This document shows, in pieces, positions 1 through 64,000 of a stretch of 64,000 nucleotides of DNA (within the stretch, counting starts at the first letter, position 1; every line of letters starts with the position of its first letter). Location: contig JAVYVS010000001.1 of assembly GCA_038727515.1 (NCBI GenBank), forward strand, positions 192,001-256,000. Direction: 5' to 3'. The DNA comes from Candidatus Methanomethylicia archaeon. GTDB lineage: Archaea; Thermoproteota; Methanomethylicia; Culexarchaeales; Culexarchaeaceae. Under the pieces are notes generated by a model. It made no database searches. It had not been told where the DNA came from and saw only the letters and a program-made list of their open reading frames with translations. The position numbers and the translations under genes are program-made.

Positions 1-22
1 TTACTGCTTCTATTAATTCCAT
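1..22 (-). CDS. 5' end of a gene running off the window, probably the TldE/PmbA partner
   Basis: ATG at 22-20 overlaps the tldD stop (TAATG) and reads MELIEAV. The identity is inferred only from the usual tldD-tldE pairing. Confidence 0.4.
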
Positions 23-1407
23 TACACCCTCCCCCCAACCATCATATTCTCAATTCTCATATGAGGTCCACCACATGTATTTCTCATTGATTGACCCATT
101 TTACCACAGAAGCTTGGATATATATCGAAATCCTTTGCTACTCCTGTTACATTTTTTAATGTTTCAAGTATAAATCCACTCATACTGAAATCCCTCAATC
201 TATCGGTTATTTCACCATTCTTTATGATATATGCTTCTTGTGCTCCAAATTGGAATATTCCTTCAGCTGGACTTACCTGTCCTCCTCTACCACCTTTAGC
301 ATATATTCCATACTTTATATCTTCAATTAATTCTTCAAAATTCATGTCTCCAGGTTGGAAGAATGTATTTGTCATTCTAACTATTGGTTGAAATCTATAA
401 TCTTGTGCTCTAGCATTTCCAGTTAATGGTAAACCCATTTTACCTGCAGCTTCTCTATTAGTTAGATACCCCTTTAATATCCCTTTTTGAATTATAACCT
501 TTCTTTGTGCTCTAATCCCTTCATCATCATATACATCTGTTCCAAATCTACCATTTATCGTAGCATCATCTATTAAAGTTACATGTTCAGAACCTATTTT
601 CTCACCTAGTTTTCCACGTAATATGCTTGTCCCCCTTAATACTCCATCTGCTTCTGATGCGTGTCCAATAGCTTCATGAGCTAGTAATCCTGAAAGTACT
701 CCATCTATTACAACTGTGAATTTTCCTCCTGGAGCTGGTTTAGCCTTTAATAATTCCATAGCTTTTTTGGCTGCTTCTCTAGATCTTTCTTCAGCATTCA
801 TTTTCTCAGTAACTTCAAATCCACCTAGCATTGCAAATCTATCTCTATATGATTGTATTAATCCAGCTTCTCTAGCATATGCCCACATACCCCAGTAAAC
901 CCATGAATTATTAATCTCTAATTGTGTACCATCACTTGTACATATAATCTTGTATTCAGAGTAATCATTGTAATTTGATGTTGTTTTTATATTTGGTGAT
1001 ACTTCCCTTGCAACATTATCTACATTTAATAGAAACTTTATTTTCTCTTCAATAGATACTTCTTCCAATGGTTCTTTCACATAGACTTTTACTTTATCCA
1101 TTGTTATAGTACTTGGAGCTAATTTTACTGGTTCTGTATCTATACTTGATTGCTTAGCCATTTTTATTGCTGTCGTTAATGCTGATTGTAATGAATCTTT
1201 ACTTATACTATTTGTTGTAGAGAAACCCCATCCACCCTTAAATAAGACTCTTATTGCAACACCTTGTTCTATTCCAGGTACTGCTGATATAACTTTTCCA
1301 TCTCTAACCTCTATATCTGTACTATGGAATTTTTGATATCTTGCTTCTACATACTCTAATCCTTCATTCACACCTTTATTTACCAACCATATTAATAAAT
1401 CCATCAT
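22..1407 (-). CDS. tldD: TldD/PmbA family metalloprotease (TldD subunit)
   Basis: HEAIGHASEAD motif, YDDEG, GNARAQ..PIVRMTNT and C-terminal CGKMGQ..GGPH. Confidence 0.93.
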   Translation of the reverse strand: MMDLLIWLVNKGVNEGLEYVEARYQKFHSTDIEVRDGKVISAVPGIEQGVAIRVLFKGGWGFSTTNSISKDSLQSALTTAIKMAKQSSIDTEPVKLAPSTITMDKVKVYVKEPLEEVSIEEKIKFLLNVDNVAREVSPNIKTTSNYNDYSEYKIICTSDGTQLEINNSWVYWGMWAYAREAGLIQSYRDRFAMLGGFEVTEKMNAEERSREAAKKAMELLKAKPAPGGKFTVVIDGVLSGLLAHEAIGHASEADGVLRGTSILRGKLGEKIGSEHVTLIDDATINGRFGTDVYDDEGIRAQRKVIIQKGILKGYLTNREAAGKMGLPLTGNARAQDYRFQPIVRMTNTFFQPGDMNFEELIEDIKYGIYAKGGRGGQVSPAEGIFQFGAQEAYIIKNGEITDRLRDFSMSGFILETLKNVTGVAKDFDIYPSFCGKMGQSMRNTCGGPHMRIENMMVGGRV

Positions 1408-1441
1408 GGCATTTTCAAAATAATATTTTTAAGATTATTTT

Positions 1442-2284
1442 TTATAATTTTCTAATCCAGAAATCAATCCAATACTCTAATGTTCTCTTTTTCATTTCTA
1501 ATCTTAATGGTTGATAAAACTCTATTTTGCTTATGATATCCATAATTTCATTTTTACCTAATCCTTTTTCTGAGAGTTCTTTTACTTCCATTTTTACTTT
1601 CTCCATAAAGTTTAGGTATTTTTCTACTTCCTCTTTTCCACATATTGGACCATGACCTGGAATTATCTTTTTTATCTTCATTTCTAAAATCATTTTTAAT
1701 GCTTTTATCCATTTATCTGGATCTGCTGTTGGGTCTCCTCCCCAAGGGAATGAATGGGAGAATATTATATCTCCAGAAAATAGTATTTCTTTATCTTTAA
1801 TGTATATTATGGATGAATCTTCTGTATGTCCACCAACGTTGATGATTTCCATATCTTCTAAAGTATATTTATCATCAAATACTTCATTTGGAGGTATTAT
1901 TTCACTTAATCCCTCATATAACCATGCGCTTTCAGGTCTTTCTACTTTTACTCTTTCAATTAAATTCTTTAATTCCTCCTTTCTCCATATGGTTTTCATG
2001 TTTTCCTCCATTATTTCTCTAAGTTTTCTATGTGAAATTATCTTACACTCTTTAAATTCTTGACATCCAAAGGTATGATCTGCATGGTAATGTGTTAATA
2101 TTAGATGTGTTATAGGCTTACTTGTTAATTTCATTATTTCATTTTTAGCTTCTCTTGCAATGGCTGGGAATCCTGCGTCAATAAATATAACTTTATCTTC
2201 ATAAATTATTGCTCCTATATTCCCTCCCTTTCCAAGTCTAGTATCCGCATATACATTCTCCAATACTTTCTCCAAGGTTTTCAC
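1442..2284 (-). CDS. MBL-fold metallo-hydrolase (cyclase-like)
   Basis: THYHADH, GGHT, FSGD and IPGHG motifs. Confidence 0.88.
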   Translation of the reverse strand: MKTLEKVLENVYADTRLGKGGNIGAIIYEDKVIFIDAGFPAIAREAKNEIMKLTSKPITHLILTHYHADHTFGCQEFKECKIISHRKLREIMEENMKTIWRKEELKNLIERVKVERPESAWLYEGLSEIIPPNEVFDDKYTLEDMEIINVGGHTEDSSIIYIKDKEILFSGDIIFSHSFPWGGDPTADPDKWIKALKMILEMKIKKIIPGHGPICGKEEVEKYLNFMEKVKMEVKELSEKGLGKNEIMDIISKIEFYQPLRLEMKKRTLEYWIDFWIRKL

Positions 2285-2384
2285 CGTTAAACATAATTCT
2301 ATTATTTATATATGAAGTATTTTGTTTATGGGTTACTGCAATGTAAAATATATTTATTACCAAAGTTATGTTTTATTGGTTTAT

Positions 2385-2765
2385 ATGTTGCTTCCCTGTG
2401 AGATTGCTGTTAAATTTGTTTTACCTAGTGTGAGGGCTGCTATTGCAACTAGGCTTATTTCAAATTATGGTTTAAAGCAAATGGATGCAGCTAAACTTTT
2501 AGGTATTAGTCAACCTGCTATTAGCTTATATACTAGACGTCTCCGTGGTGGTAAGTTACATCTTGAGGATTATCCAGATTTGACTGAGGCCATTGATAAA
2601 TTAGCTGGTATGCTGGTTAATGGTTATTCTAATTTTAATTCCTTTGTTGAAGAATTTTGTAGGATATGTAGACTTATTAAGTCTAAAGGTTTATTATGCT
2701 CATTTCATAAATTATTGGATTCAAATATTGATACCAGTAGATGTGATATTTGCAAATGTATTTAG
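2385..2765 (+). CDS. HTH transcriptional regulator (COG2522/ThiR-like N-terminus) with Cys-rich C-terminus
   Basis: MLLPCE..LPSVRAAIA..QMDAAKLLGISQPAISLY HTH; C-terminal CRIC..CSFH..CDIC. Start moved from 2322 to the ATG at 2385. Confidence 0.8.
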   Translation: MLLPCEIAVKFVLPSVRAAIATRLISNYGLKQMDAAKLLGISQPAISLYTRRLRGGKLHLEDYPDLTEAIDKLAGMLVNGYSNFNSFVEEFCRICRLIKSKGLLCSFHKLLDSNIDTSRCDICKCI

Positions 2766-2803
2766 GTGAAGCTTAATCTTAAAAATAGATATAAAATAAT
2801 TGT

Positions 2804-3220
2804 TTATACTGTTTTTATTTTTACTTCAACATTTTCCTTTAATGTCCATAAAACTGGGCAGTACTTTTCAGATAATTCGACTGCTTTTATAAGTTCTTCT
2901 TCTGGTATTCCTTCCGCTTTTATTTCAACTTCTATGGTTTTGTATCTCCTTGGAGTTTCCTCCATGGTTTCCCCTTTAACTACCACTTCAAATTTTTCTA
3001 CATTCAATTTTTTGGCATTTAGTATTCTTAGGGTTACTGATGATAGGCATCCTCCAAGTGCTGCTAATACTAATTCCATTGCTGAGGGGCCGTATCTCCT
3101 GTTTGCCCCTACAGTTTCCTCTGTTCCACCCATGGTTATTGTGAATCCTGTTTCTGTTACGGCTATTAGTCCTATCCCCTTATGTAATGAAACTCTTACT
3201 TCAGGCACATGTATCCCCAA
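2804..3220 (-). CDS. OsmC/YhfA family protein
   Basis: GPSAMELVLAALGGC and SEKYCPV two-cysteine signature. Confidence 0.88.
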   Translation of the reverse strand: MGIHVPEVRVSLHKGIGLIAVTETGFTITMGGTEETVGANRRYGPSAMELVLAALGGCLSSVTLRILNAKKLNVEKFEVVVKGETMEETPRRYKTIEVEIKAEGIPEEELIKAVELSEKYCPVLWTLKENVEVKIKTV

Positions 3221-3237
3221 ATGTTTATTTCAAATTT

Positions 3238-4014
3238 TTATTTAAGGTTTATTGGTTGATTTGGTAGATACCCTGTTAATTCTATGATTTTTATTATTTC
3301 TTCTTCTCTCTTCTTTGTGTATGTTAATTTTCTTTTTACATTGTCTATCCATGTAATATCGCTTCTCTTAGAATATTTTTCATAATATCCTTCTTCTTTG
3401 AGTTTTTCTATCATTATTTTTGCTGCTTCTATTAATTCATTGGGATCTGGTTCTCTATATTGGTTTATTGAGAGCATTATTTTTGTTGGTAATCTAGGTC
3501 TTATTGGCGGGTTTTCATCTGGATAACCAATGCATATTAGGAATAATGGTAGAACTCCATTTGGCAATTTTAATAGTTCAATTAACCTTTTGTTTGCTAA
3601 GGCTGTTCCAACGTAAACTGATGATAATCCAAGTGATTCTGCTGCTATCACTATGTTTTGTGCTGCTAGTGTTGCATCAATTATGGAGAATAATTTTACT
3701 TCGTATCCACATTCCATTTTTTGGTTATTGCATTCATCTATTGCATCTACTATTTTGAGTATTTTTCTTACGTCTGCACATACTACTAGTGTTATTGGGG
3801 CTTCAAGTATGAATGATTGTTTACCACATGCTTCATATACTTCTTTCCTTATTTTATCGTCTTTTACCCATATTATACTGTATGTTTGTAGTGAGCATGC
3901 TGTTGGAGCTCTTTGTCCTGCTTCAATTAATTTATAGACTATTTCTTCTGGTATTGGTGTGTTTTTAAATTTCCTTATTGTCCTTCTATTCATTATTACT
4001 TCTAGTGTTTTCAT
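3238..4014 (-). CDS. Nitroreductase family (NfsA/Frp-like) flavoprotein
   Basis: RRTIRKF, APTACSLQ, DATLAAQN..AESLGL, IGYPDE..RPRLP. Start ATG 4014 or GTG 4023. Confidence 0.88.
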   Translation of the reverse strand: MKTLEVIMNRRTIRKFKNTPIPEEIVYKLIEAGQRAPTACSLQTYSIIWVKDDKIRKEVYEACGKQSFILEAPITLVVCADVRKILKIVDAIDECNNQKMECGYEVKLFSIIDATLAAQNIVIAAESLGLSSVYVGTALANKRLIELLKLPNGVLPLFLICIGYPDENPPIRPRLPTKIMLSINQYREPDPNELIEAAKIMIEKLKEEGYYEKYSKRSDITWIDNVKRKLTYTKKREEEIIKIIELTGYLPNQPINLK

Positions 4015-5977
4015 GTTTTTCACCTTTATCTTTTGATTTTAGATATTTATCAAACCATTCCATCATATACTTCAATCTTTTTACTCTGTTTTTAGGTTTT
4101 CCAGATCTACTGAATACATGGCTTCCCTCTGTGAAGAGTAATAGTTTTGCTTCTTTTCTAAGATATTTTAGTGCTGTATAGAAGAGTAGTGCCTGGTCTA
4201 TGTAGCATCTATAGTCTTCCATGCTATGTATTATTAGTATTGGTGTTTGAACTTTATCTGCATGTGTTATTGGTGATTTATTTATCCATTCTTCTCTATT
4301 TGTCCACCAGTCTCCACCTATCTGGTCTGGTACAAAGTGGAATCCTATGTCTGTGGTTCCGAATTCTGCTAGCCAACAGCTTATTCCATTTAATGATACT
4401 GCTGCTTTAAATTTGTTTGTTTGTGTTATTATCCAGTTTGTCATATATCCTCCATAACTTATTCCTGTGATGCCTATTCTTTCTTCATCTATTGATGGAT
4501 AGGTTTTTGTAATGTAGTCTACCATTTCCATGAAGTCTTGGTAGTCTCTTTCACCATATTTCCTTCTTATGTCTGCAAATTCTTCACTGTATCCTCCGCT
4601 TCCTCTAATGTTTGCGTATACTACTATGTAGCCATTTGATGCGAAGATTTGATGTTCAAACATTAATGAATATCCAAATGTGCTTTTTGGTCCTCCATGT
4701 ATGAATATTATTGTGGGATATTTCTTCCCCTCCACATAGTTTACTGGTTTTATTAGCCATCCTTCAATTATTTCTCCATCTGATGCTTTAAATTGGAATT
4801 TCTCATGTGTTTGTAAGTATACTTCTTTTAGTATTTCATCGTTGAAGTTTGTTAATTTCCTTTCAATCCCATTTTCCATTACGTATATTTCTGCTGGTGT
4901 ATTTTCTGTTATTTTTGTGTATACGATTTTTCCATTTTTTACTTGGAAGTTGTCTATTATGAAGTTTCCTACAACTACTCCCTCTATATCCTCTGTTTTT
5001 AGATTCATTTTGTATATATTGTGTGTTCCACCTTTTGTTAATGTGAAGTATAATTCTTCTCTTTCTATTATTGGTGGTTGTGGTGATTGGTAAGGTCCTC
5101 TAACATCATAGTATATACTTAGATTTGTTTGATATCCTGTTTTACCTGTTAAATTCCTTATTTCTCCTGTGCTTATGTTTATCATCCATATTCCTTCATG
5201 TGTTGGATAGCCCCTTTTGTAATCATTTCCTTTGAAGTATATTCTTTCATTGCAGGGGCACCATGCCATTGGTCCTATACCCATGTCTGGATGATCTAAT
5301 CTTATTGTTTCTCCATTTTCTAAGTCTATTATATGTAGTTTTTGTTTTCTTGGTTCAAGATAGTTTGTTGTTGCTGCAAAAGCTATTTTCTTCCCATCAT
5401 TAGAGTATTTTGCCTCTATTATATTCATTTCTCCATGGGTTAATTGATTTATTTCTCCAGAATTTACTTCTATTTGGAATAGATGTATTTGTATGTGATG
5501 TGTAAATCCAATTCCATCAAACCATATTGGTATTCTGTCTATGAGTCTTGCTTCAGAATCTATTTCTCCACTTATCACCGGTGATCTGTATAGTATGTAT
5601 CTCCCATTTGGACTCCATGATGGTTGTATTATTCCAGTTTTACTTTTAATTATTAGTCTTGGTTCTCCACCCTTTATTGGTAGTAGCCATAATTCATTTC
5701 CAGGTTCTCTCTCCTTTATTGTTCTCTTTGATAAGAAGAGTATATATTTTCCATTTGGGCTCCATCTAGGCCATGTATCTGTGAAGCCATTTGTTGATAA
5801 TTCTATTTCCCCTGTTTCTGAGTTTATAATCCATATTTTTGAGTTGTATGTATTTCCTTCTTGATCTGGTTTTAGTGTTACGAAGGCTATGTATTTTCCA
5901 TTTGGGGATATTTGTGGGTCGTTTACTGATGTAAATCTATTGTAATCTTCTATTTTTAGTGGTCTCATAATTTTCAT
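3986..5977 (-). CDS. S9C family acylaminoacyl peptidase
   Basis: WSPNG beta-propeller repeats, IHGGP, GISYGG nucleophile elbow, D(YRC) and GSH catalytic residues. Confidence 0.93.
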   Translation of the reverse strand: MKIMRPLKIEDYNRFTSVNDPQISPNGKYIAFVTLKPDQEGNTYNSKIWIINSETGEIELSTNGFTDTWPRWSPNGKYILFLSKRTIKEREPGNELWLLPIKGGEPRLIIKSKTGIIQPSWSPNGRYILYRSPVISGEIDSEARLIDRIPIWFDGIGFTHHIQIHLFQIEVNSGEINQLTHGEMNIIEAKYSNDGKKIAFAATTNYLEPRKQKLHIIDLENGETIRLDHPDMGIGPMAWCPCNERIYFKGNDYKRGYPTHEGIWMINISTGEIRNLTGKTGYQTNLSIYYDVRGPYQSPQPPIIEREELYFTLTKGGTHNIYKMNLKTEDIEGVVVGNFIIDNFQVKNGKIVYTKITENTPAEIYVMENGIERKLTNFNDEILKEVYLQTHEKFQFKASDGEIIEGWLIKPVNYVEGKKYPTIIFIHGGPKSTFGYSLMFEHQIFASNGYIVVYANIRGSGGYSEEFADIRRKYGERDYQDFMEMVDYITKTYPSIDEERIGITGISYGGYMTNWIITQTNKFKAAVSLNGISCWLAEFGTTDIGFHFVPDQIGGDWWTNREEWINKSPITHADKVQTPILIIHSMEDYRCYIDQALLFYTALKYLRKEAKLLLFTEGSHVFSRSGKPKNRVKRLKYMMEWFDKYLKSKDKGEKHENTRSNNE

Positions 5978-6018
5978 TGTTAACTATATCATCTATTTTA
6001 TTTAATCTATTTGATTTG

Positions 6019-7035
6019 TTATGATTGTGTTAATTCATCTATTAATTTATTGTATATTTCTATGGCTTCTTCTTCACTTTTTACTCCTTTTATTATCATT
6101 CTTCCATTCTTGAATATGCTTACATCCTTTTCATCATATTTTATTGCTATCATAATTTCCGTTGATATTTTTATTTGGTATCGTTTAGATAGTTTTTCTC
6201 TAATTTCCTTTATGTTTATCTTCACTGGTTTTATTGGATTTACATTTATCGTGTTTCTTCCACATAGCCATGTTATTTTTGGTTGTGTTATTTCTATTTC
6301 GGTTTTTTGTTTGCATACTGGACAATTCTCTCTTTTGCTTATGTTTATTTTGTGGAATTCCATGGTTTTGAAATCACATACTAATAGTTTTCCCTTTAAT
6401 CCATTTTCTATTCCTGCTATTAGTTTTATTGCTTCCATTGCTTCTATGGATCCAATTATTCCTGGTGTTGCCCCTATTACTCCTCTTGTTTCACATGTGG
6501 GTATTAGGTTGTCATCTATTTTTGGGAATATGCATTCTAGGCATGGTGTTTCTGGTGGATGTATTACTGTTATATTTCCTTCTAATCCTATTGCTCCTGC
6601 GAATATGTATGGAATATTCTTTTTAACGCTTACTCTATTTATTATATATCTTGTAGTCATATTGTCGAGTCCATCCACTATAACGTCTACACCATCTAAG
6701 AGCTCTTCTGCATTTAATTGGTTTAAGTGTTCTGGTATTGGTTCTACTTTTACTTGTGGATTCATTTTTGATAGTTTTCTTGCTGCTACTTCAACTTTTG
6801 GTTGACCAATTTCACTTGGATCGTATAGTATTTGTCTATGTAGATTGTGTTCTTCAATTATGTCGTGATCTATTATTCTTATATGTCCGATTCCTGCTAA
6901 GGTTAGGTATATTGATGCTATGCTTCCAAGTCCTCCAATTCCTACAATAGCCACTTTTGCTTTCATTAATTTTCTTTGTCCTTCAATTCCAAGTTCTCTT
7001 AATGCTATCTGCCTTGAATAATATTCACTTATCAT
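6019..7035 (-). CDS. ThiF/MoeB/HesA family adenylyltransferase (E1-like) with C-terminal extra domain
   Basis: YSRQ, GIGGLG, NLHRQ, DGLDN, CLEC/CPVC Zn motifs, TCETRGV active Cys; LCGR..FKNGRMIIKG tail. Confidence 0.9.
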   Translation of the reverse strand: MISEYYSRQIALRELGIEGQRKLMKAKVAIVGIGGLGSIASIYLTLAGIGHIRIIDHDIIEEHNLHRQILYDPSEIGQPKVEVAARKLSKMNPQVKVEPIPEHLNQLNAEELLDGVDVIVDGLDNMTTRYIINRVSVKKNIPYIFAGAIGLEGNITVIHPPETPCLECIFPKIDDNLIPTCETRGVIGATPGIIGSIEAMEAIKLIAGIENGLKGKLLVCDFKTMEFHKINISKRENCPVCKQKTEIEITQPKITWLCGRNTINVNPIKPVKINIKEIREKLSKRYQIKISTEIMIAIKYDEKDVSIFKNGRMIIKGVKSEEEAIEIYNKLIDELTQS

Positions 7036-7079
7036 TTCGGGTTAATTCTATATTTTAATTTTGATTTATATGTTTTCTT

Positions 7080-8528
7080 TCACCATACTTTATTTGTTGT
7101 TTTCCAAGTTACGTATGCATATGGTATTGTTAAGGTTAGTATACATAGTGCTGATGCTTTGTAACCAAATATTAATAGGATTATCATTGCGATTAATCCC
7201 ATTATTGTTGTTATGCTTTCTATAATTCCAGATCTTCTGCTACTGCTTTTCTTTGCAATTTCTCCTTTTGGTGTGATATTCCATTTCTCTCTTTTACCGA
7301 ATATTATTTTTATGTCTTGTAACAGTATGTGTATAGCTAGTGCTGTGGCTAGTGCTGTGCATCTACCCATTATGGTTATGCTTTTCCATGTTTTTAATCC
7401 AAGTTTTTTTGCTGTATGCATGTATGATGCTGCTTCTAATGCTGATAATACTATTGTTATTGGTATTAGGGGTGTTATTTGGGATATGATATCCATTCTT
7501 ACTATTATTGATGATATTGCAAGTATTGCCATTGCAAAATTTGCTAGTACTGCTTGATATTGTAATAGATATAGTATTACATCTATCTTCCATATTAATG
7601 GTATTTTTGCATTAATTATTCTTGTGGCATTTTTCACTAGTGTTTGTACTGCTCCATATATCCATCTTGATTGTTGTTTTTTGAAATCTTCATAGTTTGA
7701 TGGAACTTCAACTTTTACTTCTGTTTCATCTAGATATCCAATGCGTTTACCTTTTGTTACTAGTTTTACTGATAGATCTAAGTCTTCTGCTAGTGATTCT
7801 TCATTCCAACCCCCTAATTCCATTAGTACATCTCTTTTGAATATGCATCCACATCCAGGTATTATTATTGGCTTTCTTGATATTGCTCTTCCCCTAAGTA
7901 TTATTGATGTTAGGAATTCCATGGAGATTGCTTGTGCTTCCGATATTGGTGAATCATTTATGTTTAATGTAGACCATTTTGTTGCAATTGCATCTAATTT
8001 TTCTCCTTCCATGTATGCTATTGCCTTTTCTATTAGATCTTCCTTTGGAATTGCATCTGCATCAAATACTACTATATATTTTCCATTACTTCTTTTTAAT
8101 GCGTAATTTAATGCTCCTGCTTTAAATCCTCTTCTTTCCTCTCTCCTATAGATTTTTATGTTTAAATTGTATTTAGATGATGCTTTCATAACTTCATTTT
8201 CAATGTTCATATACTTTTCCTTTGTATCATCGCTTACTATTATTATCTCCATTTTATCCTTTGGATATGATTGTTTTGATAATGCTTCTATCAATCTTAA
8301 AATTATATTTATTGATTCATTTACTGTTGGTATTATTACTGTTATTTCTGGTGCTTTCTCTAAGTCTAGATTGTACTTATTTATTTTGTATTCTCTTTTT
8401 CTTCCAATCCAGTAGTATATTGAATGGAATATTATTATTGTCCATACTAATGAATATATTGCAATTACTAGTATTGTTGCATGTATTGGTTGTATTGTTG
8501 GTGTCACTATTTGCAGCATTCTCATCAA
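7080..8528 (-). CDS. Membrane-bound processive GT2 glycosyltransferase (cellulose-synthase-like)
   Basis: DD, GFKAGALN, FDAD, AEDLD and QQSRW motifs; N- and C-terminal TM helices. Confidence 0.88.
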   Translation of the reverse strand: MMRMLQIVTPTIQPIHATILVIAIYSLVWTIIIFHSIYYWIGRKREYKINKYNLDLEKAPEITVIIPTVNESINIILRLIEALSKQSYPKDKMEIIIVSDDTKEKYMNIENEVMKASSKYNLNIKIYRREERRGFKAGALNYALKRSNGKYIVVFDADAIPKEDLIEKAIAYMEGEKLDAIATKWSTLNINDSPISEAQAISMEFLTSIILRGRAISRKPIIIPGCGCIFKRDVLMELGGWNEESLAEDLDLSVKLVTKGKRIGYLDETEVKVEVPSNYEDFKKQQSRWIYGAVQTLVKNATRIINAKIPLIWKIDVILYLLQYQAVLANFAMAILAISSIIVRMDIISQITPLIPITIVLSALEAASYMHTAKKLGLKTWKSITIMGRCTALATALAIHILLQDIKIIFGKREKWNITPKGEIAKKSSSRRSGIIESITTIMGLIAMIILLIFGYKASALCILTLTIPYAYVTWKTTNKVW

Positions 8529-8651
8529 TCCCTAGAGTTTAATGTAACTATGCTTTAATTCTTAAATTACAAGAGTATATTATCTACATTTTAATGTTTT
8601 GGTTTTGGATAGGTATATATTGTTGTTTACATGTTGTTATAATGTGTTTTT

Positions 8652-9515: not shown

Positions 9516-9541
9516 AAAATAAAAAGAAGTAAATTTATGGT

Positions 9542-53762: not shown

Positions 53763-53809
53763 AAACTAAATTCTTATTTCTAGTTATTAGAACAATTACA
53801 ATTGTGAAC

Positions 53810-53843: not shown

Positions 53844-53885
53844 TATAATAACTTTTGAATTTTTCATAATCTTTTTTGTTTAAGT

Positions 53886-54857: not shown

Positions 54858-54893
54858 AAAACATAGTTATCATAACCTATGATATAACGTTTT

Positions 54894-55664: not shown

Positions 55665-55802
55665 AAATATCGAAATTAAATATTGTCTAACATATGTTTA
55701 AATATATCACCTTCTAAAGAATCAATTAATGTAATGAAAATATTTTGCAAAAAAAGAGTAATATTTATATGATATTATACCATATATTTGCAATGAAGAA
55801 TT

Positions 55803-56585
55803 ATGTATTTTGAACCATTACCAATAGTGATATCAAAAGATAATAGGGTAAGTGTTTTATATGTAATGTTTAGCAAGGAAGCAATACATGAAATAGGAAT
55901 ATTAAAAGATTTAAGTGAGATAATTGCTGAAGAAGGAATACCAATAATAAAGTTTTTCAGTAGTAATTCCAATGTGGCAATTTTCATGGATACCACTGAT
56001 GAAGCAAAGCTATCTAAAGTTTTAGAGAAATTGAAGAGTAGAGTAAAATACGTGGAAAACTTTGGGATACATATATCAGATATTAAGGGGTTTGCATCAA
56101 TTTCAAATTCATATCCAAAATTATTTGGTGAAAGAATATTGATACTACGTGAAACAGCATTCAAATCACTAATAGAATGTATACTGGAAAATCTAAAGAT
56201 AACTCCACAAATAGTGTTATACTTAGTTGGTAGAAGAATGGGTGAAGAATACTACAAAAGCCATCGAGAAATATTTAAAACAGACTTAGAATCCACTGTG
56301 AGAATCGCAGAGAAATTATTTACATTAACAGGTTTTGGAAGGTTGGAGGTTGTTAGAAGGAGTTTTGATCCATTAGAGATTGAGTATGATGTTTATGATT
56401 GTATTGAGTGTAAGATTAATTTTGAAGCTGGTAGGAAAATTAAATCATCACTAATAAGAGGATTAATAGAAGGATATTACACAAAACTATTGGGAAGAGA
56501 AGTAGAATGCATAGAAGAAGAATGCATAACACAAGAAAAAGAAAAATGCAAATTCAAAATAAAACCAATAGAAATAAAAGCATAA
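55803..56585 (+). CDS. ACT-like + V4R domain protein
   Basis: GILKDLSEIIAEEGIPI ACT-like motif; GFG..YDCIEC..LIRGLIEG..EEEC..KCKF. Confidence 0.8.
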   Translation: MYFEPLPIVISKDNRVSVLYVMFSKEAIHEIGILKDLSEIIAEEGIPIIKFFSSNSNVAIFMDTTDEAKLSKVLEKLKSRVKYVENFGIHISDIKGFASISNSYPKLFGERILILRETAFKSLIECILENLKITPQIVLYLVGRRMGEEYYKSHREIFKTDLESTVRIAEKLFTLTGFGRLEVVRRSFDPLEIEYDVYDCIECKINFEAGRKIKSSLIRGLIEGYYTKLLGREVECIEEECITQEKEKCKFKIKPIEIKA

Positions 56586-56619: not shown

Positions 56620-58506
56620 ATGGGTTTAGTTGATGAATTTGAGTGGTTAGAGAATATTGAGGATTCAAAGGTTTTGGATTGGGCTAGGAATTTGAATTTA
56701 AAGTTTAAATCTGAATTTAATGTTCTTTCAGATAATATTTATCCTAGGGTTCTTGATGTTTATAGGTTTCCAATAATATTAGTTATGAATTTAACTAGTA
56801 GAGGTATATATTTACTTGTTAGAGAATATGATTCTTATAAAATTAGATTATTGAATTTTGATGGAGAATTAAGTGACATTGTTGATTCTAAGGATTTAGG
56901 GAGGGATATTGTTATACATAGTTTGTATTCAAATGCTTCTGGAAGTAGGATTGCATATGCATATTCTATTGGTGGTTCTGATGAAAGTAAAATTAAGATT
57001 TTAGATGCATTTTCCATGGAGGAGATTGATGAACTTGAAGGTTTTGTACATTCGATAACTTGGATTGATGATGAGAGATATTATTATGTTAGAGCTTTTA
57101 GGAGGGGTTTAACTCCCGATGGTGTTAAGCCTCCAGCCACTAGAATATTTTTGAGGGAAAATGGTTCTGAAACCTTTATTGAAAGTATTAAACCTCCATC
57201 AATGCACTATATTGATTTGAGGAGTTCAAATCATGGTGATAAAGCTTTATTAACTATTAGTTGTGGTTGGGTTGGAGTTGAATTTTGGTCTGGAGATCTT
57301 GATAAACCTGAAGATTGGAGGCATGTATATGGTGATTTGAAATCTATAACTGAACCTATGGATTACATTAATGGAAGGTATATAGTCATATATTATGGTT
57401 CAGAGGGTAATGGTGATGTTAGGGTTGTTTGGGATGGAGGATGTGAAATTATAGTGGGGGAGGATGATTTAAATCCAATTTTAGGTGGAATTGTTACTGA
57501 TAATGGGATTATACTGCATAAATTGTTTAATGCATCTTCAAAATTAGAGTTTTATGATTTTAATGGTGTATTTATAAGGAGATTAGATTTTCCAAAACCT
57601 GTAACTATTAGGAATTTACAGTATTGTAATGGTAAAACTACATTTAAAGTTGAATCTTTCTTAATGCCATATCAGATACATCTCCTCCATGATGATAAAC
57701 ATGAAATTCTAGCTTCCATGGAGATTGATTTTGATCATGAGATAATTGAAGATACAGCTGTATCAAGAGATGGAACAAGGATACATTTCTTTATGGTTAA
57801 AGGTAGAGGTAAACCTATTGATAAAGTGCTGCTTTATGGTTATGGTGGATTTAGAATATCTTTAACTCCAACATTTACACCTATAGTGAAGATATTATTG
57901 GAGGATGGATTGACATATGCTGTTGCAAATATTAGGGGTGGATTGGAGTATGGGGAGAAGTGGCATAAGGCTGGAATGCTACATAATAAGCAGAATGTAT
58001 TTGAGGATTTCAAAGCTGTTATAAAGAAGCTTAAGAGTTTTGGAGCTAAGGTGGCTATTACCGGTAGGAGTAATGGTGGACTCTTAGTCTCAGCAATAAT
58101 AACTCAAACCCCTGAAATTGTGGATTGCGCAGTAATTGGATATCCAGTGATTGATATGCTTAAATTTCATAAGCTTCACCCTGGAGTAGCAAAATTATGG
58201 ATTTTAGAATATGGAGATCCAGAAAACCCCTTTGATAGGGAATATCTATTAAAGTATTCACCATATCACAATTTAAAGTCAAACTTAAAATATCCACCAA
58301 CAATGATTTACACTGGTTTAAAGGATGATAGAGTTCATCCAGCTCATGCATTAAAATTTGCAGCTAAACTTCTAAGTGTTGGAGCTAATGTTTATCTTAG
58401 GCTTGAGGAAATGAGTGGTCACATAGGTGCATCTCCAGAAGTTAGAGCGAGAGAGGAATCTGATATTCTAGCTTTTATATATCATTTCCTTAAGGTTTAC
58501 CGCTAA
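56620..58506 (+). CDS. Prolyl oligopeptidase (S9A)
   Basis: YGYGGF, NIRGGLEYGEKWH, GRSNGGL, DDRVHP, SGH. Confidence 0.94.
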   Translation: MGLVDEFEWLENIEDSKVLDWARNLNLKFKSEFNVLSDNIYPRVLDVYRFPIILVMNLTSRGIYLLVREYDSYKIRLLNFDGELSDIVDSKDLGRDIVIHSLYSNASGSRIAYAYSIGGSDESKIKILDAFSMEEIDELEGFVHSITWIDDERYYYVRAFRRGLTPDGVKPPATRIFLRENGSETFIESIKPPSMHYIDLRSSNHGDKALLTISCGWVGVEFWSGDLDKPEDWRHVYGDLKSITEPMDYINGRYIVIYYGSEGNGDVRVVWDGGCEIIVGEDDLNPILGGIVTDNGIILHKLFNASSKLEFYDFNGVFIRRLDFPKPVTIRNLQYCNGKTTFKVESFLMPYQIHLLHDDKHEILASMEIDFDHEIIEDTAVSRDGTRIHFFMVKGRGKPIDKVLLYGYGGFRISLTPTFTPIVKILLEDGLTYAVANIRGGLEYGEKWHKAGMLHNKQNVFEDFKAVIKKLKSFGAKVAITGRSNGGLLVSAIITQTPEIVDCAVIGYPVIDMLKFHKLHPGVAKLWILEYGDPENPFDREYLLKYSPYHNLKSNLKYPPTMIYTGLKDDRVHPAHALKFAAKLLSVGANVYLRLEEMSGHIGASPEVRAREESDILAFIYHFLKVYR

Positions 58507-60874
58507 CTTTAGGTTTAAAGAAATCCGTTAAAGTTTTAGTTTTACCTAAACTCATTATTTGTTCTTCCCTTACTCCAAATACTTCTAGTATTCTTGAAAC
58601 TGCTGGTAAAACTTGATTTGAAATATAGTATTCTACATCCAATTGATCTTTTGAAGCCAACATGTATGGTATAGCCCTTTCATAAAGTTTCCCAGTACCA
58701 ATGGAAATTATGTATCCAACTTTATCACCTAGTGAGAGGCTGAAGCCTTTTTCCTTAAGTATCCTTGCAGCTTCAACATGTGGAGCTTTAACTTCATATT
58801 CACTTAAATCCTTGGTTAAAGTCTTCCAAATAATATACTCTTTGAATGGTATTTCTCCCTTCCTCATTCTTCCAATGAAACTTCTAATGAAATCTAAAGC
58901 TTTATTAACACCTTCACCATGCATAATTATCTCTAAAACCCTTTCTTGAGCAATCTTAGCCACATTAGCCCAATCTCCACGAACCACTTCCAAACCAACA
59001 AAATCCAATCTACCATCTTCAAGTAATCCACAATACCTCTTTTTAGCTTCAGTAAACAGTATTCTAACATAAACTTTATCTATCCTAGCTTCAAAACCAA
59101 GTTCACTTCTAATTCTACCCAACAATTTCTCCACGAGTTCAGGTTTATATTCTACGAATAAGCTATCAGTATCACCATAAACAACTTTTAAACCTATTTC
59201 ACTGGAGATTTTAAGAGTATTTGAAATTAGACTTCTACCCCAAGCAGTTACAGCTTCAGCTACAGGTTTAATATACCATCTAGCACCAATCCAACCAGCA
59301 TAACCATACATGGCATTTGAAATAACTTTTATAGCCTTCTGTCTAGCATCTAAAACCTTATATAATGGATCTTCTGAGCTTAAACTCTTAATTACACTTC
59401 TAATGTTATCTCTAACTTCAATTAAAGTTTTCAATACATCCCTATAGAATCCTGGAGGATCCCTTCTAAATCTATGTTTAACTTCAGGTGCAATGTATAC
59501 TCCACACGGTGGCTCAGGTTCTTCTGGTGGTATATATGTATCTGGGGAAACATTATATGTTAACATTATACTTGGATACATACTTCTAAAATCTATTACT
59601 GCAACATTTTCATGTAATCCAGGTTTAGGTTGTAAAACTATTGCTCCAGCATAGGGTTGATATAATACTTCCTTCCTCTTTGGAACAAGTTCACCAAATC
59701 TATATGCATTCCTAATCAAGAACCATTCAACTCTAAATCCAACAGCAGCTGTACCAATGAAATCCAATGGTAAACCAACGAGATATGATAATTGAATTGC
59801 AAAATCAATTATGGCTCTATAAACACCCATAATCCTCTTAACGTTATCCATGGAATACCTGTATAAATCCCCTCTTCTATTTGGATCACGCCAATAATCT
59901 TGAACTTCAAAATCCTCTATTACACCCTCAGCCTTCATAACTCCAAGATACTCAGCAATATTCTCTAAACTCTTAACTTTAACCTCTTGAAATTCATCTG
60001 CAAAATCAAATAGATCAAGATTTATCCTACCAGTAATAGATATATGCCCATACAAACTTGTATGTGGTTCACTTCCAACTCTATCAATACATAACTTTAA
60101 ACCATTCCTTCTAGCTCTCTCCAATAAGTATGGTATAAGTCTAGAATTAGAACCATAACTGACAATTATATCTGGATCATATGAATTCACATAATCAATG
60201 AACCTCTTTAAAATATTTAAATCACTTAGATCTTCACCTACAGTAAACATCTTTTCTACGCCATCACCATCAATAGTTGAAATTACAATTATAGGGTCTT
60301 TCTCAGGTTTTGGTGAGCCAGATGAACTTAAACAAATAAACCAAAATCCAAGAATCTTAAGTTTTGGAATACTTGGATCTTCAATGGATATAGGTTTATC
60401 AAGAGCTAAATAGATGGAATCAACCTTAACATTACCATACCCATCTAAAGGTTCACAATCCACTTCAATCCATCCACAAGGTCTAATTCCATTATCAATT
60501 AAATATCTAAGTGTAAATCTAATATCATATTCATAAACATCTAAAATATTTGGTAAACCCTTAACTTTAGAAGCAGTATCATCCACTCTATCTGGATCAC
60601 TACAATAAATTTTTAAAGCTTTAACATTCTTACCAAAAACCTTTCTTTCACAAACTTCAAAACCAATTACATTACGTGGAAAAAGTCTAAGAATACTATT
60701 ACCAATATCTTCAGCATTAACATCACCTTTTAAAACAGCATAGAAATATGGTTTAAACCTTCTATCAACAATAAGAATTCTACGTTCATCACTTGTTATA
60801 CCCCAAAGCCACACCTCTGGAATTCCATTTCTAAATTCATAATTTAAATCCAAAAGCCAAAATTTAATCTTCAA
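58490..60874 (-). CDS. polB3: Family B DNA polymerase, PolB3 type, with degenerate 3'-5' exonuclease
   Basis: DFRSMYPS, KVISNAMYGY, YGDTDS and KKRY intact; C-terminal PIP-like TLTDFF; exonuclease acidic residues absent. Confidence 0.93.
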   Translation of the reverse strand: MKIKFWLLDLNYEFRNGIPEVWLWGITSDERRILIVDRRFKPYFYAVLKGDVNAEDIGNSILRLFPRNVIGFEVCERKVFGKNVKALKIYCSDPDRVDDTASKVKGLPNILDVYEYDIRFTLRYLIDNGIRPCGWIEVDCEPLDGYGNVKVDSIYLALDKPISIEDPSIPKLKILGFWFICLSSSGSPKPEKDPIIVISTIDGDGVEKMFTVGEDLSDLNILKRFIDYVNSYDPDIIVSYGSNSRLIPYLLERARRNGLKLCIDRVGSEPHTSLYGHISITGRINLDLFDFADEFQEVKVKSLENIAEYLGVMKAEGVIEDFEVQDYWRDPNRRGDLYRYSMDNVKRIMGVYRAIIDFAIQLSYLVGLPLDFIGTAAVGFRVEWFLIRNAYRFGELVPKRKEVLYQPYAGAIVLQPKPGLHENVAVIDFRSMYPSIMLTYNVSPDTYIPPEEPEPPCGVYIAPEVKHRFRRDPPGFYRDVLKTLIEVRDNIRSVIKSLSSEDPLYKVLDARQKAIKVISNAMYGYAGWIGARWYIKPVAEAVTAWGRSLISNTLKISSEIGLKVVYGDTDSLFVEYKPELVEKLLGRIRSELGFEARIDKVYVRILFTEAKKRYCGLLEDGRLDFVGLEVVRGDWANVAKIAQERVLEIIMHGEGVNKALDFIRSFIGRMRKGEIPFKEYIIWKTLTKDLSEYEVKAPHVEAARILKEKGFSLSLGDKVGYIISIGTGKLYERAIPYMLASKDQLDVEYYISNQVLPAVSRILEVFGVREEQIMSLGKTKTLTDFFKPKVSGKP

Positions 60875-61905: not shown

Positions 61906-61916
61906 TTTTTTTTTTT
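61906..61916 (+). terminator. oligo-T terminator after rpl13e
   Basis: T11 run about 34 nt after the stop. Confidence 0.55.
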
Positions 61917-61950
61917 GGAAGAAATTATAGTTATTCTGGGCGGCATTAAG

Positions 61951-62766
61951 ATGGCTGAAGGAGAAGGTGAAACTGAGATTTTCTATCCAAAGGAGATCAT
62001 GACTTTACAACTACATAAACCTTGTAAAATAGCTACTATACGTGTTGAAATAGACCCAGAAGCATATTATAAGGTTGGTATACTACATGATCTTTCAGAA
62101 AACTTCTATGTTCACGGAATAAATATTTTAGGTGTATATTCAACGCAGTATCCAGACCAATATGGATACATAACGTTTTTTGTAGATGTAACTCAAGTTG
62201 CGGAAAAGGTTTTAGATGAAGTTTCAAAATCTCTTAGGGGTATTGATGGAGTTGTAGATGTAATGGTTTATGTAAGCCCAGTGGAAGGCGTTGCAGTAGA
62301 CCCAAAGACTATGCCACTTGCTATGGGTTCCAGAGCTATAATACTCATGAAACATAGCTTTAAGTGTATTGTCGAGGAATTTCATAAGAGGAGGTGGTGG
62401 CTTCTATTGAATGCTCTTGGTAAAGAAATTGGAAAGGCAGGTTTTAGGGATCATGAGAGATTTGTGGGAAGAGATATTGATAAACTCTTTAAAATGGCTG
62501 AAATTAGGTTTTCAGTGAGTGGATTCGGTTTTTGGGAGACTGTGAAAGCAGATGTGGATTCAGGGGAGTTCATTATAAGGGTTCATCATTCCATTGAATG
62601 TGATATTGGACTTGAAATTGAGGGTTATACTGGTTCACACTTTGTTAGAGGTATGATTGAAGGTTGGCTTATGGAGTTAATGGGTAAAAGTGATGTTACA
62701 GGGTTTGAAGCGAAATGTCTTGCTAGAGGAGACCCCTACTGTGAATTTCATTTCAAAATTAAGTGA
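61951..62766 (+). CDS. ACT-like + V4R domain protein
   Basis: GILHDLSENFYVHGINI; GFG..HHSIEC..FVRGMIEGW..EAKCLARGDPYCEF. Start moved to 61951. Confidence 0.83.
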   Translation: MAEGEGETEIFYPKEIMTLQLHKPCKIATIRVEIDPEAYYKVGILHDLSENFYVHGINILGVYSTQYPDQYGYITFFVDVTQVAEKVLDEVSKSLRGIDGVVDVMVYVSPVEGVAVDPKTMPLAMGSRAIILMKHSFKCIVEEFHKRRWWLLLNALGKEIGKAGFRDHERFVGRDIDKLFKMAEIRFSVSGFGFWETVKADVDSGEFIIRVHHSIECDIGLEIEGYTGSHFVRGMIEGWLMELMGKSDVTGFEAKCLARGDPYCEFHFKIK

Positions 62767-62768
62767 AT

Positions 62769-64000
62769 TTAAAATTGAAAATGAAGTATATACAATTCTA
62801 CCCATAATATGGTTGAGGCTGTAATAACTTCAATTATTGATAGCATCCCTCCAATCTTCAAGTAATCTCTAAGCCTAATGTTTAAACCTCTACTTCTAAC
62901 TATTTCAAGCCACATTAAAATTGCCAGTGAACCAAATGGGAAGAAGTGTGGGCCTAAATTGTTTCCTATAATGTTAGAGAATATTAAATTGTAGTATAGT
63001 TTTTGTGATGGATTACATTGTGTATATGCTTTTTCAATGGATATTAAGCCTATCATGGTCATAGGCCAATTGTTCATGAAGCTTGCTCCTATAGTAACTA
63101 TTAAACTTGGAATCACAGTTGATAGTATTGATGGGAATTCTGAACCCCACAATAGTAGATTTGCAAATAATGTTTCAATACCAATATGTCTAAGGCCTTG
63201 AACCACTAAGAATATTCCAACCATAAATACAAGTATATCCCAATTAACCTCCAACAATATGTTTACTACACCTTTAGCTTCTTCTGGCATTACATATTTT
63301 GACTTTGGTGTTACAAATATAGTTTTACGTGTAACTGCATAATATAATAGTAGTATTATGGCTCCAGAGAAAAGGATTATTGAAACTGGAATTCTATGTA
63401 GAGATGTATATACATATCCTAAATCAATCGATACCAATACTGCTATAATAACCTTTAGATCCATTGGATCCATTGGGTAGTGAAGCATTTGATGAACATC
63501 CTCCAAAAACTTTTTTGGGATACTCTTCTTAAAAATTGAATAAACTACAAATATGCTAATTATTATTGTTGGTATTGCTATTGGACCCATAAATTTAAGG
63601 TGGTCTATAAAGGTATACTTAAAGAAATCTGCAGAAACGATGTTTACTGGATTACTTGTTATAAATGGCATTGCAGCTGTGTCAGCTATTAATCCAGTTG
63701 CAAAGATGTATGCAATCCTCCCCTCATAGGGTATTGTTGGCTGTCTAATTATTTCAATAACGATTGGTGTTAAGATTAGTATGGCTGTATCATTGGCAAA
63801 TAATATGCTTACCAAAGCTGTTAATAAGGTTATGTAAAAATATACTTTAACTCCACTTCCATGGGCTAAATTAATTATCTTCATAGCTGCCCATTTAAAG
63901 AATCCCATGGCGTTAAGAGTAGCGGAAAGTATTAGTATACCAATGAAAGCTAAAGCTGCATCCCAAACAATTTCTAAAGCTTCAAAAACATCATTTAAAC
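62769..64000 (-). CDS. arsB: ArsB/NhaD family anion permease (5' end outside window)
   Basis: ANDTAILILTP, DTAAMP..SNPVN, NNWP, GSLAILMW. The frame stays open past 63908 to the window edge (LNDVFEALEIVWDAAL..). Confidence 0.85.
   Translation of the reverse strand, partial: LNDVFEALEIVWDAALAFIGILILSATLNAMGFFKWAAMKIINLAHGSGVKVYFYITLLTALVSILFANDTAILILTPIVIEIIRQPTIPYEGRIAYIFATGLIADTAAMPFITSNPVNIVSADFFKYTFIDHLKFMGPIAIPTIIISIFVVYSIFKKSIPKKFLEDVHQMLHYPMDPMDLKVIIAVLVSIDLGYVYTSLHRIPVSIILFSGAIILLLYYAVTRKTIFVTPKSKYVMPEEAKGVVNILLEVNWDILVFMVGIFLVVQGLRHIGIETLFANLLLWGSEFPSILSTVIPSLIVTIGASFMNNWPMTMIGLISIEKAYTQCNPSQKLYYNLIFSNIIGNNLGPHFFPFGSLAILMWLEIVRSRGLNIRLRDYLKIGGMLSIIEVITASTILWVELYILHFQF

Follow-up and report, generated by a model that had tools for sequence, protein, structure and literature searches.

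A sharp strand-bias flip beside an archaellum operon probably marks a replication pole, more likely a terminus than an origin, in an uncultured archaeal lineage

We observed a sharp flip of strand bias, independent of gene direction, in a 64,000-nt stretch of the genome of an archaeon from a hot spring, a relative of Culexarchaeia (the window; genome G000, contig C1, positions 192,001-256,000 of the forward strand). The skew around it was unique in the genome, conserved in relatives, graded with distance and marked by its own base signature. From these properties we infer a link to replication. The flip is probably a replication pole, and a terminus (probability roughly 0.6) is favored over an origin, which we consider unlikely. 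A single-strand mechanism may have shaped its surroundings. The explanation as a whole, in which a pole of replication-linked asymmetry lies where forks converge and carries an added zone of single-strand damage, stands at about even odds.

Skew was measured on the + strand at fourfold-degenerate sites (AT4f, GC4f) and at third positions (AT3, GC3). We compared G000 with G003, which belongs to a different genus, and with G004, G005, G007 and G013 (closed, same class). The G000 and G003 assemblies are not closed, and distances between poles are given by synteny. G013 was tried as a calibrator of polarity and rejected, its skew being too weak (|AT4f| ≤0.2).

Strand bias in the window

Raw AT skew per kb ranged from -0.2 to -0.41 over 1-9 kb and from +0.36 to +0.52 over 15-35 kb. 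AT4f was -0.5 to -0.8 over 2-12 kb and +0.7 to +0.97, with C exceeding G, over 15.8-33.7 kb; values of about +0.5-0.65 persisted to 53.8 kb. The main sign change spanned ~3 kb (window 12.6-15.3 kb) and lies among the following features:

1-12567, no strand: left flank; + strand T-rich and slightly G-rich at silent sites, with the same sign in + and - genes
12637-13380, - strand: GDPD gene (Pfam PF03009); 5' half locally A/C-rich on the + strand
13391-13470, no strand: nested GC-rich hairpin at the local A/C-to-G/T switch
13509-15857, + strand: hypF (Pfam); first 1.5 kb G/T-rich, last 0.6 kb A/C-rich
15250-33731, no strand: hot-zone core; AT4f +0.7 to +0.97, GC4f -0.3 to -1.0
Genes of the hot-zone core: V4R (- strand), the archaellum operon arlB-arlJ (16723-23072), M10 peptidase, formamidase, MBL, 3HCDH, ECH, ABC and FtsX
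33756-53771, no strand: decaying tail; AT4f +0.35 to +0.69 in both gene directions
53772-56579, no strand: strain-variable inverted segment with a thioredoxin-reductase-like gene, an AlaX-like gene and a V4R paralogue

A first-pass annotation of the window had claimed that the bias ignores gene direction, and the sign of the fourfold skew was indeed the same in + and - genes. On the T-rich left, + genes had + strand AT4f values of -0.66 (2322-2765) and -0.33 (8652-9515). In the A-rich part, the values for - genes were +0.86 (V4R, 15819-16685), +0.59 (DUF401, 33756-35015), +0.57 (39720-40805), +0.56 (42381-43706) and +0.64 (47164-48348). The opposite bias reported for two co-oriented genes at 56.6 kb was reproduced (55803-56585, +0.43; 56620-58506, -0.22). 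Genes on either side of the flip are directed away from it. The pattern was not that of transcription-associated asymmetry, in that hot-zone - genes mirrored + genes. Only two components followed transcription: GC3, at +0.28 for the coding strand, and an AT3 gradient running weakly from 5' to 3'. The silent-site flip previously placed at 60.9 kb did not hold up; what changes there is mainly GC skew, with gene direction.

At finer scale, the alternation described earlier was confirmed: to the right of the T-rich flank, the + strand was A/C-rich at ~13.0-13.5 kb, G/T-rich at 13.5-15.0 kb and A/C-rich from 15.25 kb. Both G-free runs were exact (85 nt, 16432-16516; 107 nt, 18683-18789), with 0.003 runs of at least 85 nt expected in 64 kb. 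AT4f in the left flank was -0.26 to -0.50 at 1-2.3 kb and -0.33 to -0.80 at 2.3-12.6 kb, and G/(G+A) there reached 0.39 versus ~0.19 in the bulk. In the hot-zone core, T made up only 2-7% of + strand fourfold sites and C/(C+T) was 0.58-0.95. In the decaying tail C/(C+T) went from 0.42 down to ~0.3 (bulk, 0.18).

The bias also reshaped proteins, with composition shifts of up to 4.6 SD, in support of the strong strand-specific mutational process that had been proposed. Together with T at 2-7% of fourfold sites, these shifts mean that local mutation pressure rather than selection sets the codon and amino-acid use of dozens of genes. Such bias distorts phylogenies, gene callers and detectors of horizontal transfer; a codon model scored real hot-zone genes poorly.

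Two poles in the genome

Genome-wide, the bias was about ±0.35 at fourfold sites in domains of hundreds of kb, with almost no bulk GC skew; G weakly accompanied A in the bulk. The minority sign was found in just 10 of the 268 genes of C1:320-679 kb. Independence of the sign from gene direction was also seen in G003 and G007. We observed only two large-scale poles, of which one is the sharp flip and the other a broad gradient lying more or less opposite. Apart from the ends of the inverted segment described below, the other sharp A-to-T flips were gene-border blips. The earlier proposal of a process starting at many discrete sites is not supported.

The hot zone had no equal elsewhere. In an AT3 scan of the genome (1506 intervals of 2 kb), all 19 intervals with |AT3| ≥0.55 fell in C1:195-227 kb. 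The base composition of the A-rich strand was A.58, C.06, G.07 and T.28 in the bulk and A.69, C.19, G.05 and T.07 in the hot zone, where C/(C+T) fell from 0.95 to 0.3 across 35 kb. The hot zone extends at least 12 kb to the left edge of the window and ~40 kb on the archaellum side. It carries a second, much stronger footprint in addition to the ordinary asymmetry, over ~40 kb to either side of the flip. Additional sign changes occur at C1:246-307 kb, and skew is patchy at C1:246-306 kb. A strain-variable region of patchy skew adjoins one side of the flip; CRISPR arrays 75 and 142 kb from the flip lie on the other side.

The opposite pole is a 190-kb linear gradient. In G003 it spans 250-440 kb, where skew declines linearly from +0.5 to -0.45, and cdc6 genes flank it at 225 and 484 kb. 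The corresponding broad zone of G000 (C3:87-216 kb and the start of C5) holds or adjoins both cdc6 genes, the 16S rRNA gene and 30 of the 36 tRNA genes found. It also contains a 1.9-kb gap (74% AT, A=T, unique terminal repeats) that is syntenic with a 1.7-kb gap at the center of the G003 gradient. In G007, cdc6 likewise lies within a zone of fading skew. The distance from flip to gradient center is ~770-830 kb of 1.7 Mb (G003, by synteny between assemblies that are not closed). An origin located at cdc6 itself was rejected, as skew did not change sign at C3:54 kb, C5:103 kb or G003:C1:225 and 484 kb. The candidate oriC gap likewise showed no skew step. A patchwork of inverted genes as the basis of the broad gradient was rejected too, because per-gene skews were unimodal.

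Terminus or origin

We propose that two replication forks may converge at the flip and that the opposite pole, with the initiator genes and other marks of an origin region, would be the origin side. In the hot zone, A and C have been lost in favor of G and T on the strand whose 3' end points toward the flip, and the signal is maximal beside the flip and falls with distance. This A>G and C>T pattern would be expected if A and C were deaminated in single-stranded DNA. Its likely cause would be that DNA at one fixed site repeatedly stays single-stranded for long periods at high temperature. A candidate route is 5'-to-3' resection of ends from forks that stalled, collapsed or completed at the flip; alternatively, the lagging-strand template may be long-lived at stalled forks.

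A more specific version, in which every round of termination at a fixed site exposes tens of kb of one strand and so scars ~30 genes in a mitochondria-like way, and initiation is dispersed over a ~190-kb zone bounded by Orc1/Cdc6 genes, is rather doubtful. We know of no description of either a fixed terminus or a dispersed initiation zone in archaea and, to our knowledge, archaea have no known fork trap. If the terminus reading is true, a single genome sequence would mark a replication pole of an uncultured archaeal class and would record a site of habitual single-strandedness in a hot environment. The pairing of a sharp, hot pole with a broad, linear one would allow a direct test of how replication starts and ends in this lineage.

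An origin at the flip, with the A(+C)-rich strand leading and the opposite gradient serving as a zone of random fork fusion, is unlikely. It draws on the resemblance of the two poles to those of Thermococcales, in which oriC shows the sharp and the terminus the broad skew (PMC2958812). Leading strands of yeasts are A+C-rich (PMC3459929), so that polarity cannot be assumed. Of the 20 tRNA genes in strong domains, 14 are on the A-rich strand, which also carries the RNA polymerase cluster and the spc cluster of ribosomal-protein genes. If the T-rich strand were leading, these genes would be head-on to replication, which counts against a terminus. The T-rich strand has 55% of coding bases and a 58-gene translation cluster, which counts against an origin. 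Divergence of genes from the flip and the weak bulk excess of G over C on the A-rich strand would also suit an origin. On that reading, the hot zone would stem from events in the first 20-40 kb: an exposed leading-strand template, a special polymerase regime or repeated abortive starts. Its start-adjacent maximum, decaying outward, contradicts the prediction of helicase-polymerase uncoupling. Contig C1, which carries the flip, has no cdc6, and at the flip we found no long gap or binding-site-like repeats. Both cdc6 genes, rRNA, most tRNA genes and the AT-rich, repeat-bearing gap are at the other pole in two genera.

Gene direction was rejected as a compass for fork movement, being contradictory: RNA polymerase, spc and tRNA genes point one way, the translation cluster and coding bases the other, and genes diverge from both poles. 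The sharpness of the flip (~3 kb) beside a broad opposite pole is counter-evidence to a terminus, as are the lack of a skew step at cdc6 or the candidate oriC gap, the divergence of genes from the flip and the want of any known archaeal fork trap. Under the usual rule that leading strands have G>C, the weak association of G with A in the bulk is consistent with an A-rich leading strand.

Center of the flip

The large T-to-A flip lies inside hypF at ~15.0-15.25 kb; in G003, hypF is missing from the corresponding place. In all three of G000, G003 and G004, the left side of the flip ends with the GDPD gene. The hairpin has the same position in G003 and G004, where the stem sequence differs yet still pairs. 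Rfam gave no match for the hairpin, within the window or in C1:270-330 kb. Gaps in the G000 flip region are just 128 nt and 37 nt, without repeated elements resembling binding sites, and no origin-like features were found at the sharp flip. Archaeal dif sites have 11-bp inverted arms and a 6-bp spacer, conserved in sequence among relatives (PMC2958812). Unlike a Xer/dif site, the central hairpin is built with different arm and spacer lengths and does not share its sequence between G000 and G003. A repeat scan of window 12400-17000 returned only low-complexity similarity. ORB-like repeats at the flip or near cdc6 were rejected as candidates (only tRNA genes and low-complexity matches), and a search for the ORB core with an approximate query sequence gave no meaningful cluster.

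We also considered that the hot zone might mark a site-specific break, nick or start of DNA transfer, such as a hot spot of recombination in the archaellum region, unrelated to replication and placed on the bulk flip by coincidence. The geometry fits 5'-to-3' resection, as exposed strands end 3' at the center and the signal decays outward, and a conserved hairpin is found at the center. We regard this as improbable: the zone coincides with the only sharp large-scale bulk sign change in both G000 and G003, which chance would produce about once in 100 cases given a target of 10-20 kb in 1.6 Mb. G007 has an archaellum operon without a flip, so the archaellum locus as such is not the cause.

Conservation in relatives

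G003 kept the gene order around the flip (50-84% amino acid identity). The flip itself, its polarity and the greater strength of the archaellum side are shared as well; the hot zone of G003 covers 42 kb on the GDPD side. In G004, the main flip and hot zone were syntenic, in agreement. The window stretch was found in 15 runs of at least seven studies. Because the main flip is present in syntenic G003, it is neither a misassembly nor a recent inversion, and it did not coincide with a synteny breakpoint, a check that the first-pass annotation had proposed. An account of the flips as artefactual or recently rearranged (through MAG misassembly, inversion or foreign DNA of other composition) is true of 53.8-56.6 kb and could touch the patchy C1:246-306 kb, but it is highly improbable in general. 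The main flip and hot zone recur in the independent assembly from another genus and in G004. Inversions would yield equal numbers of sharp jumps of each sign, where the strong jumps were 10/10 A-to-T, and the genes of the hot zone serve housekeeping and motility and are inherited vertically.

Comparison with known systems

Replication-associated strand asymmetry is known as chirochores and as the GC and AT skew of Lobry 1996 (reviewed in PMC3269012, PMC3269016). As in other prokaryotes, silent-site skew here is independent of gene direction and probably forms two domains per chromosome with roughly opposite sign changes. Unlike in those systems, A versus T is the main component (0.35 at fourfold sites) with almost no bulk GC skew, one pole is linear over 190 kb, the other reaches 0.97 with a different base signature, and there is no sign change at the cdc6 genes.

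In vertebrate mitochondria, strand asymmetry is graded by time spent single-stranded during strand-displacement replication (PMC3269012, PMC10730292). The bias we observed has a comparable magnitude. A and C are lost from one strand (A>G, C>T), with an A>G component that is graded along the DNA from a fixed point, and protein composition follows. The likeness is one of composition; this is a 1.6 Mb cellular chromosome, and its mirror-symmetric gradient is confined to ~40 kb on each side of one site.

At the E. coli terminus, forks fuse, breaks occur and ends are resected around dif and Ter (overview, PMC7174701). The flip would likewise be a unique site opposite the origin region, with ends resected outward for tens of kb. 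We identified neither a fork trap nor, at the flip, a dif-like site; the hairpin at the center lacks the sequence conservation of dif. We know of no comparable compositional footprint described at the E. coli terminus.

For mammalian skew N-domains and the skew jumps at yeast origins, direction needs calibrating per lineage (PMC3459929). Sharp jumps of one polarity with gradual returns are shared with our data; the kilobase sawtooth here differs in being tied to gene borders (±1 kb) and not spaced as replication units. GRINS, genetic repeats of intense nucleotide skews reportedly described by Nivina et al. in 2021, are similar in that skew is locally intense in coding DNA. Unlike GRINS, the zone covers dozens of unrelated genes, and no repeat family was found (window 12400-17000 scanned).

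Small flips and the inverted segment

Sharp jumps comprised 17 A-to-T versus 5 T-to-A, and 10 versus 0 at steps of at least 0.8. A-to-T jumps were intergenic in 14 of 17 cases (P = 3e-11) and every T-to-A jump lay within a gene, in line with the earlier description of sharp, intergenic A-to-T flips and genic T-to-A transitions. A shared hairpin or motif was sought at the 17 sharp A-to-T sites and none was found. Away from the main flip and the inverted segment, sharp A-to-T flips are blips of ±1 kb at gene borders. These kilobase blips are gene-border effects; underlying them is a weak general 5'-to-3' gradient on coding strands (AT3 -0.07 to +0.11).

An inverted segment, variable between strains, has its two ends at the sharp A-to-T flips of 53.8 and 56.6 kb. 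Rearrangement under skew, one of two explanations offered previously, thus applies to these two flips, though not to the main flip, around which synteny extends to G003 and G004. In G005, the segment is in reverse order and orientation. Logan contigs from four runs break at 53771/53830 and 56380-56579, with one piece there at double depth, and an opposite-strand joint is present at the segment in three runs.

Strand asymmetry in the window and across the genome

The window corresponds to C1:192001-256000 of the source genome (1.59 Mb, 12 contigs, 33% GC). This genome and its relatives were analysed as assemblies that are not closed. Genes outside the window were called with a simple codon model, and those in relatives with a purine-at-position-1 heuristic. 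Window genes were curated by Pfam because strongly skewed genes score poorly in the codon model. By Pfam, the ORFs in the skewed zone are real genes (genes to its left are listed last):

Skewed zone: hypF, a V4R gene, the archaellum operon from arlB to arlJ, M10 peptidase, formamidase, MBL hydrolase
Skewed zone, further genes: 3-hydroxyacyl-CoA dehydrogenase, enoyl-CoA hydratase, ABC and FtsX transporter parts, DUF401
Left side: GDPD, a DUF6754 module, DapF, peptidases

The closest named relatives of the window's ArlI were from Candidatus Culexmicrobium and from MAGs labelled Methanomethylicota, Bathyarchaeota or Nitrososphaerota. Runs containing window DNA, 15 in all, came from hot-spring metagenomes.

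Raw AT skew was -0.2 to -0.41 across 1-9 kb and +0.36 to +0.52 across 15-35 kb. At fourfold sites, + strand AT skew (AT4f) was -0.33 to -0.80 in all genes at 2.3-12.6 kb, two + genes included, and +0.30 to +0.97 in all genes at 15.8-53.7 kb, - genes included (V4R +0.86, DUF401 +0.59, others +0.35 to +0.67). We refer to the switch at 12.6-15.3 kb (about C1:205 kb) as the main flip and to the extreme tract beside it (core 15250-33731) as the hot zone. The first-pass annotation had described a fine A/C versus G/T pattern near the main flip, two G-free runs and two co-oriented genes of opposite bias at 56.6 kb; we observed all of these as described. A further flip claimed at 60.9 kb was absent at silent sites.

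T made up just 2-7% of fourfold sites at 16-30 kb in the curated gene list. C/(C+T) fell from 0.79-0.95 at 16-28 kb through 0.6-0.7 and 0.36-0.42 to ~0.3 at 40-52 kb, compared to 0.18 in the bulk genome. The left flank was milder, with G/(G+A) reaching 0.39. Protein composition followed DNA skew in the hot zone, as had been proposed: products of all + genes (17/17) were enriched in K, N, T, Q, P and H over F, G, V, W and C (z +1.1 to +4.6), and the V4R protein on the opposite strand scored z = -4.3 on this scale.

Beyond the window, C1:307-679 kb and C3:1-87 kb had a fourfold AT skew of ~+0.35, and C2 together with most of C4-C7 had one of ~-0.33, with equal values in + and - genes. Just 10 of the 268 genes at C1:320-679 kb had the minority sign. 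GC skew at third positions followed gene direction (+0.28 on coding strands), whereas third-position AT skew (AT3) did not. An |AT3| of at least 0.55 occurred in 19 of 1506 two-kb windows, all 19 within C1:195-227 kb. The asymmetry is genome-wide, not local, and the window is special in its degree.

Base composition at fourfold sites of the A-rich strand was A.58, C.06, G.07, T.28 in bulk, where G goes weakly with A, and A.69, C.19, G.05, T.07 in the hot zone. The extra change in the hot zone is T to C on the A-rich strand (A to G opposite), plus C to T on the opposite strand. We also observed a hot-zone-type signature of opposite sense in a 35-kb block at C1:271-306 kb (AT4f about -0.4 to -0.6, fourfold GC skew +0.3 to +0.8), which terminates at 306.7-307.7 kb, where the skew changes fairly sharply, and whose genes are poorly conserved in the related genome G003. 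Either this block once belonged to the hot zone and has since been inverted, or it constitutes a second pole of lesser strength. The window also encodes, 45 kb from the main flip, a family B DNA polymerase paralogue (window 58490-60874, - strand, Pfam DNA_pol_B plus exo domain), which may or may not be relevant to the mutation bias.

Conservation of the main flip

In G003 (same family, other genus), contig C3 preserves the order of the genes found at 0-51 kb of the window, at 50-84% protein identity. The flip, its polarity and its side asymmetry were the same as in the source genome: the archaellum side had an AT4f of -0.84 to -0.87, the GDPD side one of +0.5 to +0.7 over 40 kb. In G003, the flip is flanked by a short V4R-like gene and arlB, and the relative G004 has the same junction. 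Because hypF is missing from this place in G003, it is not the cause of the flip. Recurrence in these sequences indicates that the main flip is not an artefact. G007 (other family, same order) showed bulk asymmetry across 200 kb, and we found no flip at its archaellum operon.

In two order-level relatives, alignments to the arlI orthologues from the genome search crossed stop codons, 13 of them in G007 (C1:35723-37654) and 6 in G011 (C228:729-2657). This points to decay of the archaellum operons, or to a problem with the reading frame or genetic code.

Next to the start of GDPD, and coinciding exactly with the local A/C-to-G/T switch, is a GC-rich nested hairpin of ~80 nt. It was kept in 3/3 genomes, with differing stem sequence and retained pairing. 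In both G003 and G004, a tandem 13-nt direct repeat (CAAYGTTACATAA x2) occurs in the arlB promoter region and is a likely binding site for a regulator.

Nested hairpin: window 13391-13470; G003:C3:30877-30946; G004 stretch L166, about 1640-1720
CAAYGTTACATAA repeat: G003 stretch L074, 10261-10286 (G003:C3:30261-30286); L166, about 2300-2330

The hairpin matched no Rfam family and is not dif-like by a published definition (PMC2958812). Possible explanations are a small RNA not yet known, a structure with a regulatory role or a cruciform in the DNA.

A broad gradient with a candidate origin

On G003:C1 (1.08 Mb), AT4f was +0.35 to +0.5 up to 250 kb, fell near-linearly to -0.45 by ~440-480 kb and stayed negative to 1 Mb. 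The cdc6 genes, at 225 and 484 kb, mark both edges of this gradient. In the source genome, the equivalent zone comprises C3:87-216 kb and the beginning of C5, where per-gene skews were unimodal and not patchwork-like. In or beside this zone are:

C3:54 kb and C5:103 kb: cdc6 genes
C3:173 kb: 16S rRNA

The zone also holds an RNA polymerase cluster and a 58-gene translation cluster. Together, C3 and C5 (21% of the genome) carry 30 of the 36 tRNA genes detected, a count that probably misses intron-bearing ones. A gene-free gap at C3:183476-185401 (1.9 kb, 74% AT, A=709, T=710) has a copy at each end of a 12-mer found just twice genome-wide, and a 7-mer enriched 15-fold. ATGTGAY motifs cluster in this gap. 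A syntenic 1.7-kb gap (G003:C1:338456-340175) lies at the G003 gradient centre, about midway between the cdc6 genes. This conserved gap is a candidate replication origin. We found no skew step at the gap or at the cdc6 genes. The G007 cdc6 sits in a fading zone of bulk skew.

Synteny (C1:306.7 kb = G003:C1:1069 kb) placed the main flip ~770-830 kb from the gradient centre in a 1.7-Mb genome, roughly opposite it.

Terminus or origin at the main flip

We consider the main flip to be a replication terminus with a probability of about 0.6; an origin there is unlikely, and so, to a similar degree, is some other explanation. Skew polarity alone decides nothing, because the direction of replication skew is not universal: leading strands of yeast are A+C rich (PMC3459929).

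An origin would accord with the shapes of the two poles, since in Thermococcales skew is sharp at oriC and broad at the terminus (PMC2958812), as at the main flip and the other pole, respectively. The weak association of G with A in bulk also favors it, as do the RNA polymerase and spc ribosomal-protein clusters and 14 of 20 tRNA genes in strong domains, all on the A-rich strand. However, it is the other pole that has, in two genera, both initiator genes, the rRNA, the majority of tRNA genes and the sole origin-like gap, and nothing origin-like lies at the main flip, where gaps are just 128 and 37 nt. Three further observations count for a terminus: the T-rich strand carries 55% of coding bases, CRISPR arrays are present on one side of the flip at distances of 75 and 142 kb, and its opposite side borders a strain-variable region of patchy skew. 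The hot-zone geometry also fits a terminus: the damaged strands have their 3' ends at the centre, and the signal fades outward. End resection or stalled converging forks would produce such a geometry, which uncoupled synthesis from an origin does not predict.

Neither the terminus model nor the origin model explains the smooth 190-kb gradient without a step at the cdc6 pole. Dispersed initiation or random fork fusion would each give such a smooth shape.

Two of the three CRISPR arrays are within 150 kb of the main flip, in a zone of patchy skew:

C1:62884-64677: 23 repeats
C1:129691-131837: 29 repeats
C6:75005-77087: 32 repeats

Smaller flips and an inverted segment

A genome scan for sharp skew changes (scale ~500 nt) gave 17 A-to-T and 5 T-to-A jumps; for steps of at least 0.8, the counts were 10 and 0. 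These jumps were blips of +/-1 kb, and GC skew, which was not used for picking, shifted in the matching sense. The A-to-T jumps were intergenic in 14/17 cases, whether the context was divergent, convergent or tandem, and we found no common motif at the sharp sites. Across coding strands of all long genes, AT3 rose from a 5'-end value of -0.07 to a 3'-end value of +0.11, and this drift looked alike for genes on either strand. The drift accounts for the earlier observation, borne out here, that T-to-A transitions are gradual inside genes and A-to-T flips sharp between them.

The 53.8 and 56.6 kb flips are of another kind than these blips: the segment between them is an inverted, strain-variable piece. 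In the relative G005, its three genes are in reverse order and orientation. Logan contigs from four runs of four studies ended at 53771/53830 and 56380-56579, with a 200-nt piece at double depth. An opposite-strand joint was present in three runs, and one contig joined 53773 directly to the reverse complement of 56577. The window encodes three V4R-domain paralogues within its 64 kb:

Window 15819-16685
Window 55803-56585
Window 61915-62766

Those near 53.8-56.6 kb, at the ends of the inverted segment, may act as substrates for its recombination.
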